Shown here: piece by piece, positions 2,972 through 50,205 of the stretch
Numbering within the stretch: position 1 is the stretch's first letter
Layout: every line of letters starts with the position of its first letter
Assembly (NCBI GenBank): GCA_016209105.1
Contig: JACQWR010000025.1
Location: forward strand, 41,314-105,313
From: Deltaproteobacteria bacterium
GTDB taxonomy: Bacteria; Desulfobacterota; Syntrophia; Syntrophales; JACQWR01
Direction: 5' to 3'
Length of the DNA stretch: 64,000 bases
The notes under the pieces: generated by a model
What the model was told of the DNA's origin: nothing
The model's input: only the letters and a program-made list of their open reading frames with translations
Database searches by the model: none
Made by a program: the position numbers and the translations under genes

Positions 2972-3252
2972 ACCACAGGCGCAGCGGAAAAAAGAAGAAA
3001 GACCGGGGCTTGAAGGCACATATTGATATGAACGTGCTTTTGTGACGAGGATGTTTGCGATGGGGGCTCATGTGTCAATAATAATTATGATATGGATATT
3101 CTTAGGTATAGTGCCGTTAACCATTCGCTCGATTACCCAGAGCAAGCTGCGGGAAAGGAATCTGCAATTGCATTTGCGGGCGGAATAATGGTAGTTACAT
3201 TTTTGTTACGATTTTAGGATCGTCTGCGGACGGTTCTCCCGGAGACAGGAAC

Positions 3253-4803
3253 GTGAGTATCCACAGTTTCGAAGAACTGGCCGCACTGCATGCCATCGCC
3301 AAGATCCTGGCTCAGCCGCAGGAATTGCGGGATCAACTGGAGCTGGTCCTCAAGGAGATGAGTTCGCGGCTCGGCATGCAGCGCGGGATGATTTCCCTGC
3401 TGGATCGGGAGACGGGACAGGCCTGGCTTGATGTGGCCCATGACGTGAATATTGAGGGCATGGACGTGACCTATCAGCCTGGCGAGGGCATTACGGGAAA
3501 GGTGGCCCAGACGGGGCGTCCCATGGCCATCGCCAATTTGGACCTGGAAGCGCATTTCCTGGACCGAACCGGCGCCCGGCGCTTTCTGAACAGATCGGAA
3601 CTGGCCTTTCTCTGCGTGCCCATCATCTACGATGCCCGCGTGGTTGGGGTATTGTCGGCGGACAAGGTGGCCCACAAGGTGGATAACCTGGACCGCGAGA
3701 TGGCCATGCTTTCTTCCGTTGCGGAACTGATTGCCAAGGCTGTCCATTTCCGCGCTCTGGAGGAGGAAAACCGGCGCTTGCGTCAGATTATCGGCCGTTC
3801 TCAGACCCCTTCCGTTGATATCGTCGGCCGTTCCAAGGCCATGCAGGAGGTCTTCGGTCTGATTGCCCAGGTGGCCGATTCCGGCACCACCGTCCTGATT
3901 TATGGCGAGACGGGCACCGGGAAAGAGCTGGTAGCGCGGTCAATACACCTGAACAGCCCACGCAAGGCGGGCCCGCTTGTCCAGGTGAATTGCGCCGCCA
4001 TGCCGGATACCCTTATTGAGAGCGAGCTCTTCGGCCATGAAAAAGGCGCATTTACCGGCGCAACGCATCGGCAGCGCGGACGTTTCGAAGAGGCCCACGG
4101 AGGCACCATTTTTCTCGACGAGGTGGACGAGCTGTCTGCGGCGGCACAGGCGAAACTCCTGCGTGTCCTGCAGGAAAAGCAGTTTCAACTCCTGGGCTCG
4201 TCGAAAATTGTGACCGTGAACGTCCGCATCATCGCCGCCACCAACCGCACACTGGAACAGGACGTAGCATCGGGGCGATTCCGCGCGGACCTGTATTACC
4301 GCCTCAACGTCTTTCCCATTTTTCTGCCTCCTCTCCGGGAACGGGGAAACGACATTATCCTCCTTGCCGATTATTTCATTTTAAAGTACAGCACGATCGT
4401 GGAAAAACCGGTAAAGCGGATTACCACGGCGGCCATGGATGCCCTCCTTTCCTATCATTGGCCGGGAAACGTGCGGGAGTTGGAAAATTGCATCGAGCGC
4501 GCGGTCCTTCTGGCGGCAGGCGATTCCATTGACAGCATTCACCTGCCCCCGTCCCTGCAGATGAAGACGAAGGAAGGAGGAAAGAAAGAACAGAGCAAGT
4601 TAAATACCGTTATTGAGGCACAGGAGCGGGCGCTGATCACCGATGCCCTGAAGGAGGCGCAAGGCAACCAGACCCGTGCGGCCAAAATGCTAGGTACCAC
4701 AAAACGTATTATCCAGTATAAAATCCGCAAGCTGGCGATTAACCCGGTGCGGTTTCGCCCGAAACAGGGAGGGATGCCGCCGAGCCCGCCGAAAAACACA
4801 TAA
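3253..4803 (+). CDS. Sigma-54-dependent transcriptional activator, NifA-like (GAF - AAA+ - Fis-type HTH, no receiver domain)
   Basis: GTG start. N-terminal GAF-like region, Walker A GETGTGKE, the GAFTGA motif ([15 protein letters not shown]), [10 protein letters not shown], and C-terminal [21 protein letters not shown]. Confidence 0.85.
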
Positions 4804-13498: not shown

Positions 13499-14650
13499 AT
13501 GTCGCTTTTGCGGCAGCAACAGCCGGCCCTGTTGGTACTGGAAGACGGAAGCGTGTACCATGGGTACGCCTTTGCCGGATCGGGGGAAGTGCTGGGTGAG
13601 GTAGTTTTCAATACCGGCATGACGGGGTATCAGGAAGTTATTACCGACCCGTCTTACAAGGGGCAGATAGTTGCCATGACCTATCCTCTGGTGGGCAGTT
13701 ACGGCATCAATCCGGAAGATAGGGAATCTGCCGGCGTCCACCTGGAAGGCTTTATCGTGAAAGAGTATCAGACCCGGCCCAGCAACTGGCGGAGCCGGCA
13801 AACCCTGAAGACCTTTCTTGAAGACCATGGCAGGATCGGCATCGAGGGGATTGATACCCGGGCTCTGACCCGCCGCATACGGCTTACCGGCGCCATGCGG
13901 GGCATCATTTCCACGGAGACCGCGGACACTGATCTTCTCCTTACGCGCGTGCGCGCTTACCCCGGCCTCGTGGGCCGGGATCTGGTTAAGACGGTTACCT
14001 GCAAAAAACCCTGCCGTTGGCGAGACGGTGCGCCCCGGCAGATCAGAACGATGGGGATGAGATCCCCGCGGGGGAAATTACGGGCCGTCGTTCTCGATTG
14101 CGGCGTCAAGTACAATATCCTGCGCCGGCTGGAGGAGCGCGGTTGCGAGATTATCATCCTGCCCGCCACCGCAACGGCGGAGGATATTTTGTCTTGCGGA
14201 GCCCACGGGCTGCTGCTTTCAAACGGGCCCGGCGATCCGGCGGCCCTTTCCTACATTGTGGACGCGGTCCGCAATGTCCTGGGCAAAATCCCCATATTCG
14301 GCATTTGCCTGGGACATCAGATTCTGGGCCAGGCCCTGGGAGGCAGGACCCTCAAGCTCAAATTCGGCCACCACGGCATTAATCAGCCGACAAAAGACGA
14401 CCGGACGAAACGCATCGAGATCACCTCGCAGAACCATGGCTTTGTCGTGTTGCCCGAATCACTGCCCGCGGACATCGAAGCAACCCATGAAAACCTCAAT
14501 GATCGCACTTCAGAAGGGATGATCTCCCCGGCGCTCAAGGCCTTTAGCGTCCAGTATCATCCGGAAGCAGCGCCCGGCCCTCATGATGCGACCTACCTGT
14601 TTGATGAATTTGTCGGACTCATGGAAAAGGAAAGGGAAAAATCACGATGA
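13499..14650 (+). CDS. carA: Carbamoyl-phosphate synthase small (glutaminase) subunit
   Basis: LVLEDGSVYHGYAFG, FNTGMTGYQE, GICLGHQ and the HGFVV/YHPEA triad region. Confidence 0.93.
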   Translation: MSLLRQQQPALLVLEDGSVYHGYAFAGSGEVLGEVVFNTGMTGYQEVITDPSYKGQIVAMTYPLVGSYGINPEDRESAGVHLEGFIVKEYQTRPSNWRSRQTLKTFLEDHGRIGIEGIDTRALTRRIRLTGAMRGIISTETADTDLLLTRVRAYPGLVGRDLVKTVTCKKPCRWRDGAPRQIRTMGMRSPRGKLRAVVLDCGVKYNILRRLEERGCEIIILPATATAEDILSCGAHGLLLSNGPGDPAALSYIVDAVRNVLGKIPIFGICLGHQILGQALGGRTLKLKFGHHGINQPTKDDRTKRIEITSQNHGFVVLPESLPADIEATHENLNDRTSEGMISPALKAFSVQYHPEAAPGPHDATYLFDEFVGLMEKEREKSR

Positions 14651-16176
14651 TCCTCATCATTGATTTCGGTTCTCAGTACAACCAGCTTATTGCCCGACGC
14701 GTGCGGGAGCACAGCGTCTATTGCCAGATCGAACCTCCGGAGATTGACATTGAACGGATAAAGTCCCTGCACCCGGAGGGGATCATCCTGTCCGGGGGGC
14801 CGGCAAGCATCTACGAGAAGAAAAGTCCCCGCACCGCGAGCGGTATCTTTGAACTCGGCATCCCCATCCTGGGCATCTGCTATGGACTTCAGTATATGGT
14901 GGACGCCCTCGGCGGCGAGGTCATCCGATCCAAAAAGAGGGAGTACGGATTTGCCGAACTGACGGTCAAGCGTGATGGAGGAATATTCCACGGCGTCAGC
15001 GGGAAAACAAAGTGTTGGATGAGCCACGGCGACACCATCGGCAGACTGCCACGGGGTTTCACCATCACGGCGTCCACGCCGAACACGAAGGTGGCGGCGG
15101 CCCAGCACGCGACCAGACGCCTGTACGGCCTGCAGTTTCACCCCGAGGTGGTTCACACGGCGGAAGGGAAAAAGATGCTGGAAAATTTCCTTTTCCCGAT
15201 CTGCGGTTGTAAGAGGTCCTGGACTATGAAAGCCTTCGTCCGGGAGGCCGTGGAGGAAATCAAATCCCAAGTCGGTGACGGACGGGTGATCTTGGGACTG
15301 AGCGGCGGCGTTGACTCTTCCGTTGCCGCCCTGCTCATTCACCGGGCCGTCGGCGACCGGCTGACCTGCGTGTTTGTGGACAACGGCGTCCTGCGCGAGG
15401 GGGAAGCCGCGCGGGTACAGGAGCTCTTCAAGAAACATTTCCGGATCAACCTGCGGTTTATCCGGGCGGGGAAGCTGTTCCTGAAAAAGCTGAAGGGTGT
15501 TGCCGATCCGGAACGCAAACGGAAGATCATCGGGCGCACGTTCATCGAGGTGTTCGACCGGGAAGCCCACCGGATCAGGGACGTCCGGTACCTCGCGCAG
15601 GGGACGCTCTATCCCGACGTGATCGAGTCACAGTCGACCTTCGGCGGGCCCAGCGCGGTCATCAAGTCGCACCACAATGTGGGCGGCCTGCCCCGGAAGA
15701 TGAAGCTGAAACTCGTGGAACCGCTCCGGCACCTTTTCAAGGACGAGGTGCGCCTCGTAGGAAAGGAACTGGGGCTTCCGGATGAGCTGGTCTGGCGGCA
15801 GCCCTTCCCCGGACCGGGGCTCGCGATCCGCATCATTGGCGAGGTCACGGAGAAGCGCCTGGCCGTCCTGCGCAAGGCCGACGTCATCCTCCTCGAGGAA
15901 ATCCGGGCGGATAATCTCTACCGCAAACTCTGGCAGTCTTTCGTGGTCCTGTTGCCGCTCAAGAGCGTGGGGATCATGGGGGATCAGCGGACCTACGAAA
16001 ACATTGTCGCCATCCGGGCCGTCACCAGCGACGACGCCATGACGGCGGACTGGGCAAGACTGCCTCACGACCTTTTGGGCCGGATATCCAACCGGATCAT
16101 CAACGAAGTCCGGGGCGTCAACCGGGTGGTGTACGATATTAGTTCGAAGCCGCCCAGCACCATCGAGTGGGAATGA
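14647..16176 (+). CDS. guaA: GMP synthase (glutamine-hydrolysing)
   Basis: ATGA overlap with carA. ILIIDFGSQYNQLIARRVRE, GICYG, the SGGVDSSV PP-loop, and the C-terminal PPSTIEWE. Confidence 0.95.
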   Translation: MILIIDFGSQYNQLIARRVREHSVYCQIEPPEIDIERIKSLHPEGIILSGGPASIYEKKSPRTASGIFELGIPILGICYGLQYMVDALGGEVIRSKKREYGFAELTVKRDGGIFHGVSGKTKCWMSHGDTIGRLPRGFTITASTPNTKVAAAQHATRRLYGLQFHPEVVHTAEGKKMLENFLFPICGCKRSWTMKAFVREAVEEIKSQVGDGRVILGLSGGVDSSVAALLIHRAVGDRLTCVFVDNGVLREGEAARVQELFKKHFRINLRFIRAGKLFLKKLKGVADPERKRKIIGRTFIEVFDREAHRIRDVRYLAQGTLYPDVIESQSTFGGPSAVIKSHHNVGGLPRKMKLKLVEPLRHLFKDEVRLVGKELGLPDELVWRQPFPGPGLAIRIIGEVTEKRLAVLRKADVILLEEIRADNLYRKLWQSFVVLLPLKSVGIMGDQRTYENIVAIRAVTSDDAMTADWARLPHDLLGRISNRIINEVRGVNRVVYDISSKPPSTIEWE

Positions 16177-16182
16177 GCGGGG

Positions 16183-16309
16183 CCGGCTCCGGAAAAAGGG
16201 CCATATGCGGCGTTGCGCTTCGTCATGAGTCACCGGCGTACGCAAAAGTACGCCTCATTCCTCATAACTCGCGCGCCTTGCCTCTGGCGCTTTTTGCGAA
16301 GCCGCCTGG
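16183..16309 (+). repeat. Stop-codon-abutting inverted-repeat element, family A, diverged copy A4
   Basis: It shares the central hairpin ggcgtac-gcaaaa-gtacgcc and the flanking ccttgc...tttttgcgaagccgcctgg arm with 30596-30721. It starts 7 nt after the guaA stop. Confidence 0.55.
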
Positions 16310-16318
16310 GATCGAAAA

Positions 16319-16891
16319 ATGGATACTGGCATACAAACTTTTTGCACGATGATCCGCAATCGGTCTGATGAGAATCGCCGAGCAATGCATTGCTTTTCCA
16401 TTCCGCATGGTGTTTTGAGTCCTGCGTTCTCGATTCTTCGGCAGGAATTGGATTCAATGATTAGGGTGATTTATCTGCTACAAATCACCGATCTTGCTGA
16501 ACGCCAACGACTGATTCAATCTACCCTACGTGGCGAAAAATGGAAGGTAATGACTCCGAAGGGGAAAGGCCGTGATGTAACCGACCGCGAGATGGTTGAT
16601 CTTGCCCAACGGCTACAAGGCTGGACACAGTCTGTCTATAGGTTTGGGTGTGCCTTTGTCCATCTATCGGATTTTCACAATCATCTCACACAAAACCCGT
16701 TTCAGAGGTTGTCGGAAGCAGAGAGGCAGGATATCCTGACACACATGCGTAATTACCACGGCGGGCCGTCACACGATAATCCAGAAATGGAAGAAATATC
16801 CAGGTACCTGCCACAAGTGTTCGACAAGATCGCCGGCAATCTGAAGTGCTACCTTGAAGATCTTGAACGTGGTAAAACGGAACATACATAA
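16319..16891 (+). CDS. Hypothetical protein (no recognisable domain)
   Basis: 190-aa ORF in the same direction as its neighbours, lying between guaA and carB. No motif was recognised by eye. Confidence 0.5.
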   Translation: MDTGIQTFCTMIRNRSDENRRAMHCFSIPHGVLSPAFSILRQELDSMIRVIYLLQITDLAERQRLIQSTLRGEKWKVMTPKGKGRDVTDREMVDLAQRLQGWTQSVYRFGCAFVHLSDFHNHLTQNPFQRLSEAERQDILTHMRNYHGGPSHDNPEMEEISRYLPQVFDKIAGNLKCYLEDLERGKTEHT

Positions 16892-29561: not shown

Positions 29562-30593
29562 ATGGAAATAGGTATTCTGGGTCTCCCCCAGAGCGGTAAG
29601 AGCACGCTCTTCGAGATCATGACGGGGACAAAAAGCAGCGACGTTCACGGCGAGGTCTGTGTCCGCGGCCAGGCCACGGTTCCCGATGAACGCTTCGACC
29701 ACCTTGTGGAGGTCTTCCATCCCGCGAAGGTGTCTCCCGCCAAGGTGCCCTTTACGGATGTGAACGCCGCAGGGGAAAAGGCATGGGATGCGGTGCGCCA
29801 GAACTTAAGCGGCGCCGACGGCCTCCTGCACGTGGTGGACGGATTTTCCACCGACAACGTTCAGGAAGTGATGAACAGCTACCGGAAGCTCGAGGATGAA
29901 CTGGTTCTTTCCGATCTGCTGATCGTGGAGAACCGCCTGGAGAAAATGACCCGGCTGCCGAAGAAGGCCCTCAATCCCCAGGAAAGTGCCCACACCCGTA
30001 TTCTTCCGCGGCTCAGGGAACAACTCGATGCAGGTAGGCCGCTGCGCGAACTTGAGTTCACGGGAGAGGAGATCACGTCCCTCAGGAGTTTCTCCTTTTG
30101 GACTATCCGTCCCGAACTGGTCGTCCTGAATACGGCAGAGGATAATCTAACGCTTGCCGATACCTTTCGCGATCAGGCGGGGCTCAAGGTGCCGGTCATC
30201 GGCATCTGCTGCCAAATCGAGGCGGAGCTGGCAGGTCTGGCGCCGGAGGAGCAGGCGGAATACTTGCGTTCAATGGGCATTGAGGAGCCAGCCTTCGGAC
30301 GGATCATCCGCGCGTCCTTTTCGCTGCTCGGCCGTATCGCCTATTTTACCTGCGGCGAGGACGAGGTGAAATCGTGGGTTATCCCGGCGGGATCGAAGGC
30401 CCCGCGTGCGGCCGCCGCGATCCACAAGGATTTTGAACGGGGTTTCATCAAGGCGGAAGTGGTGAGTTACGCGGATTTCCAGTCCTGCGGAAGCACACTC
30501 GCCGGCGCCAAGGCCGCCGGGAGGCTTCGTCTGGAGGGAAAGGAGTACGTTGTTCAGGATGGCGACATAATCACCTTCCGCTTCAACGTCTGA
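29562..30593 (+). CDS. ychF: YchF-family ribosome-binding ATPase/GTPase
   Basis: P-loop GLPQSGKST. C-terminal DFERGFIKAEVV...EGKEYVVQDGDIITFRFNV (the YchF TGS-like end). Confidence 0.85.
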   Translation: MEIGILGLPQSGKSTLFEIMTGTKSSDVHGEVCVRGQATVPDERFDHLVEVFHPAKVSPAKVPFTDVNAAGEKAWDAVRQNLSGADGLLHVVDGFSTDNVQEVMNSYRKLEDELVLSDLLIVENRLEKMTRLPKKALNPQESAHTRILPRLREQLDAGRPLRELEFTGEEITSLRSFSFWTIRPELVVLNTAEDNLTLADTFRDQAGLKVPVIGICCQIEAELAGLAPEEQAEYLRSMGIEEPAFGRIIRASFSLLGRIAYFTCGEDEVKSWVIPAGSKAPRAAAAIHKDFERGFIKAEVVSYADFQSCGSTLAGAKAAGRLRLEGKEYVVQDGDIITFRFNV

Positions 30594-30595
30594 AA

Positions 30596-30721
30596 CAGGC
30601 TGTTGAAAAATGCCTATCTGCGGCGTTTCCCTCGTCCTCCGCCATTCGACGTACGGAAAAGTACGCCATCATGGCTCAGGACTTCGGGAGCCTTGCATCT
30701 GGACATTTTTTACCAGCCTGT
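30596..30721 (+). repeat. Stop-codon-abutting inverted-repeat element, family A, copy A1
   Basis: Terminal inverted repeats caggctgttgaaaaatgcc / ggacattttttaccagcctg and a central hairpin gacgtac-ggaaaa-gtacgcc. It starts 3 nt after the ychF stop. Confidence 0.75.
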
Positions 30722-30750
30722 CAGAGTGATCTTGCTTGAATTGTAATTTT

Positions 30751-30921
30751 TTACCAGAATGGATTGATCTTCACTAAAATGGCCAACAAGATCAGAATAA
30801 TTGCTAAAAGAAAAAAAGACGAAGACTTGACCGGGAACTCTTCATCATCACCAATTATAAAAGCAATAAATAAAGCACATAAGGTAGAAAGAATTGCGAA
30901 GATAGTGAGTGCGATAATCAT
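30751..30921 (-). CDS. Possible 56-aa two-TM membrane peptide (below ORF-track cutoff)
   Basis: ATG preceded by GGGGGAG. Translation is MIIALTIFAILSTLCALFIAFIIGDDEEFPVKSSSFFLLAIILILLAILVKINPFW. It sits in a visibly AT-rich patch. Confidence 0.35.
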   Translation of the reverse strand: MIIALTIFAILSTLCALFIAFIIGDDEEFPVKSSSFFLLAIILILLAILVKINPFW

Positions 30922-39038: not shown

Positions 39039-39136
39039 GATGACAGTCCCTTTGCGTAGGCAGTGTACCCGAAAATAATCTCAAATTGTCCTTCAGAATG
39101 CTGCTCTTCCAGTTGTACCAGGTTTCGTCGTCTTTA

Positions 39137-39260
39137 CAGGCTGTTCAAAAATGCTCAGATGCAAGGCCCCCGAAATACTTCGCCGTGAGGCGTACTGATA
39201 CGTACGCCGAATGGCGAAGTATGAGGGAAACGCAGCAGATGGGCATTTTTCAACAGCCTG
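39137..39260 (-). repeat. Stop-codon-abutting inverted-repeat element, family A, copy A2 (reverse orientation)
   Basis: The reverse complement aligns end to end with 30596-30721. It directly abuts the stop codon (39261-39263) of the minus-strand gene upstream of it. Confidence 0.75.
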
Positions 39261-40349
39261 TTACGTAACCTCGCTTCGCAGTGAAGAGACCCTCATACGC
39301 CGGTATGTCCAGCAGACGATGTAGAAAAAAAAGGCGCTCCCGCCGCCCACGCGGATCATTTCCCAGGCAATTTTCTGCACGCGCTTCTGCCGGTACACCT
39401 TTTTGTCTGCCAGATACATGGCGAGGAGGCCTGCGCTCATCATCCGGTGAAATTCCGCCAGGGGGAGACGGGAAAGCTCCCCGTGAGCCCGACGGTAAAA
39501 GTGTACCAATCTTGCCGCCATGACCGCGTCCGCAGGGTAGTAAGAACAAAAATTGAGGTCCCGGCCGGCACGATCCTCCTCCTGGTCGATGAGATAATCG
39601 AGCAGGATATGCAGGCCCTGCATCCAGGGGAAATAGGCATTCTTCAGCCGTTGCACGAGCTCGTCGGTGCATTCCCCGTTCAGGGACTGCGAAACAAGAC
39701 AGAAAATGCCGAGCGTGGAACCGGTGCAGGCGGCAAACTCATACCAACTCATGGGGGGCAGTTTATCTTTGTGGAGGGCAAACCATGCCTCCAGGCGGGG
39801 AACGCGCTCTTCTGCCCGTACGTGCTTGTGCACCTGCAGGTCGCAGTAGTAACCGGACAGTTCGAGAAGGGCCGGCGCGATCCTGCCGTATGTCGGCAGC
39901 CCTTCCAGGATGGACTGACAGGTCTTCACGAGGCTTGTCAGATAGCCTCCGTCGTCTCGTTCCTTCCGCAGACGGTAATACTCGCTGCACGCCGCACCGG
40001 GGGTCAGGGCGTGCGGCATAGACTCATGGAGGGCGCGGAAGTCTTCCGGGTCGAGGGAGGTGCTGCGATCGCAAAGGTTGTCCAGATAATCACTGATGGT
40101 CTGGTAGGCAACGATGAAGCGTATCGCCTCATCGTACCGGTCGCCGGCCAGTAATCCGTAAATGGAACCCCCTTCGCAGTGAAAGGTCTTCGTTTCGATG
40201 CTGGCGAGGGCCTGTTTCCGGAGTTCCGGATCAGGAATTGCCGCTGCCTGTTGTTTCCATTCCGTGAGATACTTGTGTACGCGGGGACGGACCTGAAGAA
40301 AAATTTTTGGGGTCATCGTCCAGAGATGGGTTGGTGCTTTCACACGCAC
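39261..40349 (-). CDS. DUF2600 family protein, tetraprenyl-beta-curcumene synthase (YtpB)-like
   Basis: Blocks AYQTISDYLDNLCDRS, YYCDLQVHKHV, YEFAACTGSTLGIFCLV, GLHILLDYLIDQEED and LNFCSYY match my recollection of Bacillus YtpB-family hallmarks. No alignment was run. Confidence 0.65.
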   Translation of the reverse strand: MRVKAPTHLWTMTPKIFLQVRPRVHKYLTEWKQQAAAIPDPELRKQALASIETKTFHCEGGSIYGLLAGDRYDEAIRFIVAYQTISDYLDNLCDRSTSLDPEDFRALHESMPHALTPGAACSEYYRLRKERDDGGYLTSLVKTCQSILEGLPTYGRIAPALLELSGYYCDLQVHKHVRAEERVPRLEAWFALHKDKLPPMSWYEFAACTGSTLGIFCLVSQSLNGECTDELVQRLKNAYFPWMQGLHILLDYLIDQEEDRAGRDLNFCSYYPADAVMAARLVHFYRRAHGELSRLPLAEFHRMMSAGLLAMYLADKKVYRQKRVQKIAWEMIRVGGGSAFFFYIVCWTYRRMRVSSLRSEVT

Positions 40350-47955: not shown

Positions 47956-48156
47956 GGATTCATGAACCTGCCAGTTATTTAACGTTCCCTCTATAGCACT
48001 GCCCCGCTCTTATTTCAAGAGACGGCGGTCTCTAAAAAAGCGGTTCTCAAAACGCTGCGGGGAATGCGCTCGTTGCCGGGTTCGCGAACGGGCTTGCTAA
48101 ATCAGCCCATGTTTGTTAGGGTTCGCCCCCGGAAAAGACTTGGCAGCCTGCAAAAA

Positions 48157-48264
48157 TGACCGGGGGTGCTCCTGCGAGTCCCGCCTTAAAGGCGGGGCTA
48201 AGGGGCGCAATGAAAATCAATAGTCCTTACCGGGAAGCCCCGCCCTCCGGGCGGGAAGCTTCAC
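48157..48264 (-). repeat. Structured intergenic repeat, family C, copy C2 (reverse orientation)
   Basis: It is the reverse complement of 13378-13485. It is flanked by family-A-like arms (cagcctgcaaaaatga at the left, cactttttcagcaacctg at the right). Confidence 0.7.
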
Positions 48265-48300
48265 TTTTTCAGCAACCTGTTGCTCCACCGGAGGGAAGAT

Positions 48301-49557
48301 ATGTCCTTAATTGATACCCTCATTACTCGATCAGCCCGGCAGATGTTCGGCAGAGCCATGAGGTTTGACGGCAAAAACCCGGCGCGGATACCTGCGGGCT
48401 CCAGCGCGAAACCGCGCCTCCTCTATCTGCATGTCCCCTTTTGCGAACGGCTGTGTCCCTACTGCTCTTTCAACCGGGTCGTATTTGACGCCGGCCTGTG
48501 CCGCGAGTATTTCCAGGCTCTCCGGAAAGAAATAGTCCTCTACAAGAATGAAGGCCATGAATTCAGCGGCATTTATGTGGGCGGCGGCACCCCCACGATT
48601 CTCATCAATGAACTGCAGGAAACCCTGTCCCTGGCCAGGCAGTGCTTCGGGATACGGGAAATCTCCGTGGAAACCAACCCCAACCACCTTACCGAAGAGA
48701 ACCTGGAGATTTTAAAGTCGAGCGGCGTGAGCCGGCTTTCCGTGGGGATACAGAGCTTCGACGGCGGTCTACTGAAGGATATGGACCGCTATGACAAATA
48801 CGGGAGCGGAGCGGTCATTGCCGCGCAGTTGGAACGGGCGCGCGGTTACTTCGACACCCTCAATGCGGACATGATCTTCAACTTCCCCTCCCAGACCATG
48901 GCGACGCTAAACAATGACCTGGATATCCTGACCGGGATGGGCATGGATCAGATTACCTACTACCCCCTGATGGTCTCCGATTCAACGAGGGAAAAGGTTG
49001 TGAAGACGCTGGGCCGGGTGGATTACGGCAAGGAAAAAAAACTGTACCGACGCATTGTGGAGCGGCTTGCCCCCTCCTACCGTTTTTCCTCGGCATGGTG
49101 TTTCTCCCGCAAGTCCGCCCCGATTGACGAGTACATCGTGGACTACGATGAGTATGCGGGACTGGGCAGCGGGGCGATAGGGTATATTAACGGCATCTGT
49201 TATGCGAACACCTTTGACATTCCCGAATATATCGAACGGGCGGGCAGGGGGGAGATGCCGCTCTTTGCCGCCCGCGAGTTTTCCTTTCGGGACAAGGTGC
49301 GCTATGATTTTCTGATGAAACTCTTCGGGATGAAGCTCGATCTGGAAGCCATGAAGGAAAAGTACGGTTCAGAGCTGATGGGGGTGCTCTGGCCCGATAT
49401 CCTCGTCTTTAGCCTGATACGGGCGATCCGTTACTGGCCGCCGCACTTGCATCTGACGGAAAAAGGACGCTATGTCTGGGTGATCCTGATGAGGGAATTT
49501 TTCATCGCCGTGAACAACCTGCGGGACTACTGCCGCGCTCGCATCCCCTCCGCTTAG
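48301..49557 (+). CDS. Radical SAM protein, HemN/HemW-like coproporphyrinogen III oxidase family
   Basis: LYLHVPFCERLCPYCSFN carries the CxxxCxxC motif, with GGGTPT downstream. ATG at 48301 with RBS ggaggga. Confidence 0.85.
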   Translation: MSLIDTLITRSARQMFGRAMRFDGKNPARIPAGSSAKPRLLYLHVPFCERLCPYCSFNRVVFDAGLCREYFQALRKEIVLYKNEGHEFSGIYVGGGTPTILINELQETLSLARQCFGIREISVETNPNHLTEENLEILKSSGVSRLSVGIQSFDGGLLKDMDRYDKYGSGAVIAAQLERARGYFDTLNADMIFNFPSQTMATLNNDLDILTGMGMDQITYYPLMVSDSTREKVVKTLGRVDYGKEKKLYRRIVERLAPSYRFSSAWCFSRKSAPIDEYIVDYDEYAGLGSGAIGYINGICYANTFDIPEYIERAGRGEMPLFAAREFSFRDKVRYDFLMKLFGMKLDLEAMKEKYGSELMGVLWPDILVFSLIRAIRYWPPHLHLTEKGRYVWVILMREFFIAVNNLRDYCRARIPSA

Positions 49558-49558
49558 T

Positions 49559-49788
49559 CAGGCTGCTGAAAAACGCCCGTCTGCTGCGTTTCCCTCATAC
49601 TTTGCCATTCGACGTACGTATCAGTACGCCTCATGGTCGAAGAGACCGGGGGCGCATCACCGAATCCCGCCATAAGGAGGGATGAGGTGGCGCAACAGCA
49701 GACGATTACTTCCCTGCCGGGAATCCACGCTTGGTAAGCGTGGATTCAATTCGGGGGCCTTGCAAGTTCGCTCCGCTTTCCGAAGCCG
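49559..49788 (+). repeat. Family A element copy A3 carrying a nested family C copy (C3, about 49644-49758, reverse orientation)
   Basis: The left arm caggctgctgaaaaacgcc and the hairpin gacgtac-gtatca-gtacgcc are intact. The core is interrupted after ccggggg by about 100 bp homologous to family C, then resumes cgggggccttgca. It starts 2 nt after the hemN-like stop. Confidence 0.65.
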
Positions 49789-50205
49789 TTAGCCCACGAG
49801 TTCAAGACTGTTAAAAAAATACCCTATCTCAAACGCCGCCGTCGCCGGGGCATCGGAGCCGTGCACTACATTTTTCTCAATATCCGTGGCAAAATCCCTC
49901 CGAATCGTCCCTTCCGCCGCCTCTTTGAAGTTCGTCGCCCCCATTAATTCGCGGTAGCGGGCAATGGCATTTTCTCCCTCCAGCACCATGACAATGGCCG
50001 GGCCGGAAGACATGAATTCCGTCAGCGACGTGAAGAACGGTTTCCCCCGGTGCACGGCGTAAAACCCTTCCGCCTGCGTCTTGGTCATGTGGATCATCTT
50101 CATGGCGATGATTTTCAGGTTGCTTTTTTCCAGCCTCCTGATGACCTCGCCGGCGACCCCGCGGGCGACCCCGTCGGGTTTGATGATTGAGAGCGTTCGT
50201 TCCAT
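49789..50205 (-). CDS. ndk: Nucleoside diphosphate kinase
   Basis: [12 protein letters not shown] and the NVVHGSDA active-site His motif. Confidence 0.95.

Follow-up and report, generated by a model that had tools for sequence, protein, structure and literature searches.

The window, by which we mean the whole 64,000-nt stretch of DNA that was analyzed, carries four copies of a hairpin-forming repeat (c1 to c4), each lying directly behind a gene. The GMP synthase gene guaA (14647-16176) ends in a TGA stop codon, and c1 begins 4-6 nt later; ychF (29562-30593) also ends in TGA and is followed after 2 nt by c2; the gene for a DUF2600 (YtpB-like) protein (39261-40349) has its TAA stop at 39261-39263, and c3 begins 0 nt beyond it; and a radical-SAM gene (48280-49557) with a TAG stop is followed after 1 nt by c4. 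A profile HMM built from three copies found exactly four elements in the window. These are c1, at about 16182-16307 on the plus strand, placed by nhmmer, its stop distance and its right arm; c2, at about 30595-30721 on the plus strand, with a left terminal repeat, a conserved core and an inner right repeat; c3, at about 39135-39261 on the minus strand, recognized by nhmmer, terminal motif and fold; and c4, at about 49558-49788 on the plus strand, located by nhmmer and containing an insertion of ~95 nt. The nhmmer strand assignment was unambiguous for each copy (e.g. 131 bits for the assigned strand and 28 bits for the other). An earlier sequence-only reading of this DNA had listed four copies at nearly the same positions, starting 0-7 nt past stop codons. 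The search confirms these copies, and the measured distance is 0-6 nt in all four.

The terminal motif CAGGCTGTTGAAAAATGCC has five matches in the window at ≤3 mismatches, against 0.03 expected. The central GCGTAC-N6-GTACGC hairpin described in the sequence-only reading is also borne out, with four matches against 0.07 expected; the core of c2 contains it as CGTAC-N6-GTACG. Each of the four copies forms a single long imperfect hairpin (z = -3.7 to -12) with a sense-strand stability of -58 to -69 kcal/mol. Two parts of the earlier description required revision. The terminal repeats said to be shared by all copies are common to c2-c4, which are A-type, but not to c1, which is B-type with TGACGGCTTCG... 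ends. The proposed length of ~125 bp is correct for the hairpin, but most relatives are larger and also possess an outer terminal repeat and a target-site duplication.

The repeat belongs to a widely dispersed family. Scanning 185,579 species genomes with three core motifs (GCGTT..CGTAC-N6-GTACGCC..GCCTTGC) returned at least 117 loci in many phyla, and the genome loci listed contain ~136 non-redundant copies by nhmmer, mostly full length at 120-130 bp. Hosts among the matches listed include Nitrospira, NC10/Methylomirabilota, Acidobacteriota, Omnitrophota, Thermodesulfovibrio and one Hyphomicrobiales MAG, as well as the Thermodesulfobacteriota, represented by Syntrophales, Desulfobacterales, Geobacter/Desulfuromonadales and the isolate Geothermobacter hydrogeniphilus. 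The closest relatives of the window organism's proteins carry Syntrophales or Deltaproteobacteria labels. A metagenome scan with the right-arm motif of subfamily A matched at least 120 contigs, with ~100 copies in the contigs listed. The copies fall into four subfamilies, A-D, which have a common core and different arms: CAGGCTG[C/T]TGAAAAA in A (window c2-c4, of which c3 and c4 are a short form), TGACGGCTTCGTAAAAAG in B (window c1), CAGGATGCTGAAAAAGTCCGCCAG in C (Nitrospira) and GAGGCTGTCGGAAAAC in D. Element size ranges from 125 to 210 bp with no coding capacity, and the density in the window is 4-5 copies per 64 kb. A BLAST search with c3 against 72,556 plasmids and a scan of viral contigs for the terminal repeat gave no match, and a full-text literature search on MITEs, stop codons, Nitrospira/Geobacter and the exact terminal-repeat strings found no relevant paper. 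The family is not a private 3'-UTR motif of the window genome, and a multi-phylum MITE family of this kind is apparently new to description.

Comparison of the copies defined the anatomy of the element. Every copy shows pairing between its left arm and its inner right arm, and most copies have a third repeat, the outer right terminal repeat, a reverse-complement version of the left arm that lies 7-56 nt beyond the hairpin. The mean local-alignment score for this repeat downstream of the hairpin was 7.96, compared with 5.5-6.0 in three controls, and scores ≥10 were reached by 28 copies compared with 1-4 in the controls. At a score ≥9, 47 of 119 genome copies have this repeat, and at a score ≥8, 45 of 78 metagenome copies do. 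Of 45 A-type metagenome copies, 42 have the end of the outer repeat 24-27 nt past the end of the hairpin; the spacer before the outer repeat is 7-9 or ~18 nt in B-type copies and ~56 nt in Nitrospira copies. The short forms represented by c3 and c4 stop at the inner right repeat and also carry duplications. With slashes marking the junctions, the ends read (N)TAG/CAGGCTG...CAGCCTG/N. An 8-bp duplication, which would suit ISL3, was considered for subfamily B and rejected, as the mismatches are confined to the outer positions; this pattern instead indicates TG...CA ends (TGACGGC...GCCGTCA), a 4-bp duplication and the target A/NNNN/TG. The family thus displays terminal inverted repeats, a flanking duplication, small size, the lack of an ORF and many dispersed copies, the features by which MITEs are recognized.

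Within the window, a clean outer repeat or duplication is missing in three of the four copies. The right arm of c1, CTCTGGCGCTTTTTGCGAAGCCGCC, is identical to the right arm at locus L037, and a possible degenerate outer right repeat lies at 16336-16353. For c2, a weak match on the plus strand at 30744..30761, TAATTTTTTACCAGAATG, is a possible degenerate outer right repeat, around which no clean target-site duplication was found. Read in element orientation, c3 is flanked by TAA (39261-39263) and TAA (39134-39136), a 3-bp direct repeat. The 4-bp duplication at c4 consists of TTAG (49554-49557) and TTAG (49789-49792), and stop codons are present on both sides of this copy: the TAG of the radical-SAM gene on the left and the TAA of ndk (49789-50205, minus strand) on the right, where the right-hand TTA is the reverse complement of the ndk stop. 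This TTAG duplication between convergent genes indicates that the radical-SAM and ndk stops once overlapped in a single TTAG. In both GuaA and YchF the Pfam C-terminal domains are matched through the final residue. As these domains are complete, the insertions lie behind native stops and the proteins are not truncated.

Two further features of the window copies were observed. The ~95-nt insertion in the interior of c4 (about 49654-49747) lies between direct repeats of CGGGGGC and carries a perfect 12-bp stem, GGAATCCACGCT-TGG-TAAGCGTGGATTC; BLAST found no further copy of it in ~1.5 Mb of collected loci. Downstream of guaA, a 190-aa ORF (16319-16891) begins within the c1 spacer or possible outer repeat. 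Its product has no Pfam match, and its start codon, or the whole ORF, may be an insertion artefact.

Across the family, a 4-bp target-site duplication, usually TTAG, CTAG, ATAG or CTAA, flanks the whole element. The flanking 4-mers were identical in 14 of 45 A-type metagenome copies, compared with 3.35 by permutation (maximum 10 in 2000 trials). The matched A-type 4-mers were TTAG (8), CTAG (2) and ATAG, together with the non-stop sequences TTGA, GAAA and TTCT. The occurrence of non-stop sequences among the matched pairs shows that this is a true duplication with a sequence preference, as opposed to a constant segment of the element itself. Matched flanks are also seen in Nitrospira copies, as CTAA/CTAA and CTAG/CTAG. 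The relationship to stop codons extends well beyond the window: 37 of 78 A-type metagenome copies have TAG, TAA or TGA immediately before the left repeat (~47% against ~5% by chance), and an ORF of ≥100 codons terminates at the left boundary in 52 of 119 genome copies. TAG-type duplications are also present where no long ORF terminates, which indicates that the target preference belongs to the insertion reaction. At the B-type locus L082 the left junction is AAGGAC/TGACGGC... and the right flank is AGGAC TGA, with the original TGA stop retained.

Several comparisons bear on mobility. Among the closest relatives found, those with 72% protein identity keep DUF2600 and DAGK as a syntenic gene pair with no element in the intergenic region, and the relative with 84% protein identity likewise lacks it, with flanks too diverged to define an exact empty site. 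These sites without an element suggest that c3 was inserted in the window's lineage. In a distant organism (L149), an independent A-type insertion is found at the TTAA that ends ychF, and only the final ~60 nt of ychF and the element can be aligned with the window. At the same locus (reverse strand, about 1098-1290), the outer repeat is followed by TAA and a 13-nt duplicate of the left repeat, CAGGCTGATGGGG..., which suggests that insertions are nested or that an older copy served as the target. Pairs of elements were also observed head to tail, with the junction duplication CTAG in common at L027 (4075-4324) and ATAAT in common at L008 (about 3239-3390); such shared junctions indicate that elements insert beside, or into the ends of, one another.

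An autonomous partner was sought among terminal-repeat pairs 0.5-3.5 kb apart in ~1.5 Mb of loci, and those found enclose ordinary genes, e.g. radical SAM and sigma-54 activator genes. All-vs-all clustering of 1296 ORFs yielded a sole candidate, an ISL3-like transposase, which was discarded as its ends, GGCTCATGACGAATT, are unrelated. No transposase bounded by the family's repeats was found in these loci, in viral contigs or in plasmids. In L134, a complete ISL3-like insertion sequence (~425-aa transposase, ends GGCTCATGACGAATTATTG unlike those of the MITE) lies ~80 nt downstream of a MITE copy (at about 90-230), and L046 and L235 hold related transposases.

Elements with the same ends and other interiors were also found. 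A fifth related element in the window, at 48143..48279 on the plus strand, has the terminal repeats GCAGCCTGCAAAAATG ... CTTTTTCAGCAACCTG and the flanks TTGG and TTGC. Its interior differs from that of the family and holds two GC-rich hairpins, and its end coincides with the TTG start codon of the radical-SAM gene. The Nitrospira loci contain many more same-end repeat pairs, 105-190 bp apart, that were missed by the family HMM, including L009 7852-7974; L019 5141-5263 and 7323-7444; L038 3320-3470; L092 7816-7940; L100 2420-2544; and L114 548-701 and 4612-4780. Shared ends with different interiors are typical of MITE superfamilies. Judged by their ends, the Nitrospira pairs appear to be sister MITE families with other interiors, and the arrangement fits one common transposase mobilising several MITE families.

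Considering the repeats, the duplications and the multi-phylum spread together, we regard it as very likely that the family is a non-autonomous DNA transposon, a MITE, with a target that regenerates the stop codon, and that selection explains its position at stop codons. The element would be moved by a DDE-type transposase encoded elsewhere. On insertion at a stop, the duplicated TAG or TAA target (subfamilies A, C and D) would re-create the stop and leave the protein unchanged; in subfamily B the terminal repeat opens with TGA, so that an inserted copy would supply the stop itself. At c4, the clearest case, the duplication gave each of the convergent genes its own stop. Insertions in coding sequence would be removed by purifying selection and stop-abutting copies would accumulate, and we infer that purifying selection, not function, shapes the distribution of copies. 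Because an insertion that regenerates the stop is harmless, the position rule is explained. The sequence-only reading had offered a very specific insertion mechanism as one possibility, which is essentially right given the inverted repeats, the 4-bp NTAG/CTAA duplication and the B repeat that starts with TGA. Its argument that random MITE insertion would not give the pattern is wrong, since target preference combined with purifying selection yields the position rule.

The same reading had held that the orientation of the repeat relative to the upstream gene is constant. Only c1 and c3, which have co-directional neighbours, are informative on this point; c2 and c4 sit between convergent genes and are uninformative, and the chance probability of all four copies sharing one orientation is 1/8. 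All gene calls were ORF-based. A first count of 40:7 for stops at the left versus the right end of the hairpin was rejected as biased, since the stop of an antisense gene lies at the outer repeat, 25-75 nt farther out; it was replaced by symmetric 100-nt criteria and by counts of copies between co-directional genes. Between co-directional genes, 44 copies are sense and 33 antisense (p=0.25), and a constant orientation is therefore not upheld in the ~200 further copies outside the window. With both orientations present and a MITE anatomy, what the sequence-only reading had named as refuting it has largely been observed. Where a gene tail lies within 100 nt (≤100 nt) on one side only, it is on the hairpin side in 59 copies and on the other side in 33 over all subfamilies (p=0.009). 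The corresponding counts are 40 and 15 for subfamily A (p=0.001), 7 and 10 for B, and 9 and 7 for C, the last two not significant. Antisense copies, with a gene ending at the outer repeat, occur in subfamily B (L041, L072), C (L015, L031, L066) and A (L192, L214, L237). Across the copies collected, the position at stop codons stands and a fixed orientation does not, the bias being found in subfamily A alone. The constant-orientation rule is a small-sample impression, and symmetric insertion does not account for the ~2.7:1 orientation bias of subfamily A.

The matched duplications of A-type copies are themselves asymmetric in element orientation, with eight TTAG pairs and none of the complement CTAA. 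Of the eight TTAG copies, two have a gene that uses the stop only on the hairpin side and two only on the opposite side; one copy has such a gene on each side, and three have none. Sense copies behind CTAA or GTAA stops exist as well. These small numbers hint that the element orients to its non-palindromic target rather than to the gene.

We also characterized the conservation of the hairpin. When the subfamilies were aligned together, RNAalifold and a dynamic-programming search gave the central stem alone, since arms from different subfamilies do not align in register. Covariation was instead measured on a single-subfamily alignment of 70 A-type copies (A3) with 44 consensus pairs. Changes on both sides were present in 23 of the 44 pairs, interior stems included, amounting to 171 cells compared with 43 in shuffles, and none of 500 shuffles was as high. 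In this alignment 90.7% of cells were paired, compared with 32-43% when the partners were slid by 1-3 columns. The strand antisense to the sense orientation of the earlier reading folds ~10 kcal/mol better in 101 of 104 copies. Among non-Watson-Crick pairs, top-strand A.C (equivalent to bottom-strand G.U) was counted 136 times and top-strand G.U 67 times, in copies that are related, so that the counts are not independent. Two details are conserved across subfamilies: a G.G mismatch in GCTG-G-AAAAA/TTTTT-G-AGC, and an ATCTG motif that is present in both arms as a direct and not an inverted repeat. Whole-length covariation and the G.U strand asymmetry are not predicted by simple decay of a selfish element. 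Template switching, in the form of quasipalindrome correction, can restore the pairing of a DNA palindrome without function, and we therefore do not read the covariation as proof of an RNA.

These structural data are relevant to three further readings. The repeat might be a transcribed 3'-end element, either a terminator, an mRNA stabiliser or a source of small RNA, whose position and sense orientation are kept by selection and whose transposon features account for its spread alone. The great stability of the sense hairpins (-58 to -69 kcal/mol), the covariation of the interior stems, the 40:15 distribution of gene tails at the hairpin end in subfamily A (p=0.001) and the adjoining stop codon in all four window copies are all in keeping with such a role. 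However, the sequence after the hairpin is an A-rich spacer or unrelated, with no U-tract, and no intrinsic terminator (hairpin plus U-tract) was predicted at c2 or c3. An Rfam search of the whole window returned 0 matches at the gathering threshold, and at E<10 only a chance match to a plant miRNA hairpin, with 18 bits against a gathering score of 142. The bias seen in subfamily A is absent from B (7:10), from C (9:7) and from the co-directional total (44:33), the orthologous sites in relatives are empty, and quasipalindrome correction could generate the covariation. The better folding of the bottom strand, which the wobble pairs favour as well, argues against a sense-strand 3'-UTR RNA as the selected form, and we consider a 3'-end element of this type very unlikely. 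If the antisense strand is taken as the relevant one, the hairpin core could be a selected structural module, carried by the transposon, that folds antisense to the upstream gene, as RNA or single-stranded DNA, and acts at gene ends. We judge this unlikely too, but if true it would explain the 40:15 bias, covariation along the full hairpin and why the hairpin persists where the outer repeat has decayed. It could provide orientation-dependent insulation, 3'-end protection or antisense regulation, and would mean that a mobile element has been repeatedly domesticated as a 3'-end module in several phyla.

Folding of the bottom strand, together with a fixed orientation, would also arise naturally from single-strand DNA or site-specific movement, by way of a REP/REPIN-RAYT system, an IS200/IS605-type element or an integron attC-like site. 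The bottom strand is indeed the better folder, and the excess of TTAG over CTAA (8 vs 0) hints at insertion oriented to the target. Against this, both orientations occur, and the duplications vary (TTAG, CTAG, ATAG, TTGA, GAAA, TTCT), whereas HUH single-strand transposition makes none; the ends are true terminal inverted repeats and not two different subterminal hairpins; and the copies are single and dispersed beside housekeeping genes. Integron attC sites were specifically rejected, as the ends lack the R'' (RYYYAAC) and R' (GTTRRRY) cores and there are no cassette arrays. A REP/REPIN-RAYT or IS200/IS605 derivation was rejected because a duplication is present and one 125-nt hairpin spans the element. 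We give single-strand movement hardly any credence.

The MITE reading offers a simple explanation for stop-adjacent repeats: the duplication or the terminal repeat re-creates the stop, and only such insertions are cost-free. Uncultured lineages of environmental importance (Nitrospira, Syntrophales, NC10 and Acidobacteria) carry the family widely, and in them it will confuse the annotation of gene ends, the prediction of terminators, the search for small RNAs and assembly. The arrangement of three repeats and the conserved, covarying hairpin should be of note to researchers of bacterial MITEs, and do not constitute a new class of system.

Several known systems resemble the family in part. As extragenic palindromes behind genes, REP/REPIN-RAYT and attC sequences are similar, and attC sites also have a fixed orientation and fold on their bottom strand. 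However, REPs are 20-40 nt long with no duplication, and attC sites have R''/R' cores and form cassette arrays, neither of which is a feature of the present family. Insertion sequences of the IS5, IS701 and IS630 types share a TAG-containing tetranucleotide target and a 2-4-bp duplication. Elements of the IS5 group or the IS701 family typically have a 4-bp target of the YTAR or CTAG type, and IS630 uses TA within CTAG. The ends of the IS5 family (e.g. IS903), of the GGCT...AAA type, likewise resemble those of the present family. The difference is that no transposase was found for the present family in the loci searched, and its terminal repeat is not known to match any named IS. The ERIC/IRU elements of enterobacteria and Yersinia are imperfect palindromes of ~127 bp that are intergenic, transcribed and often beside stops, and orientation-dependent effects on the stability of the upstream mRNA have been reported for them. 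They differ in their TA target, sequence and taxon range. The Correia elements/NEMIS of Neisseria are MITEs of ~100-155 bp with inverted repeats and a hairpin over their whole length. Many copies lie near or overlap gene ends and are transcribed together with adjoining genes, and insertion regenerates their stop-containing termini (TATAG...). While Correia elements have a TA (2-bp) duplication and an unrelated sequence and are confined to a single genus, the present family has a 4-bp duplication, a third (outer) right repeat and a distribution that spans several phyla.
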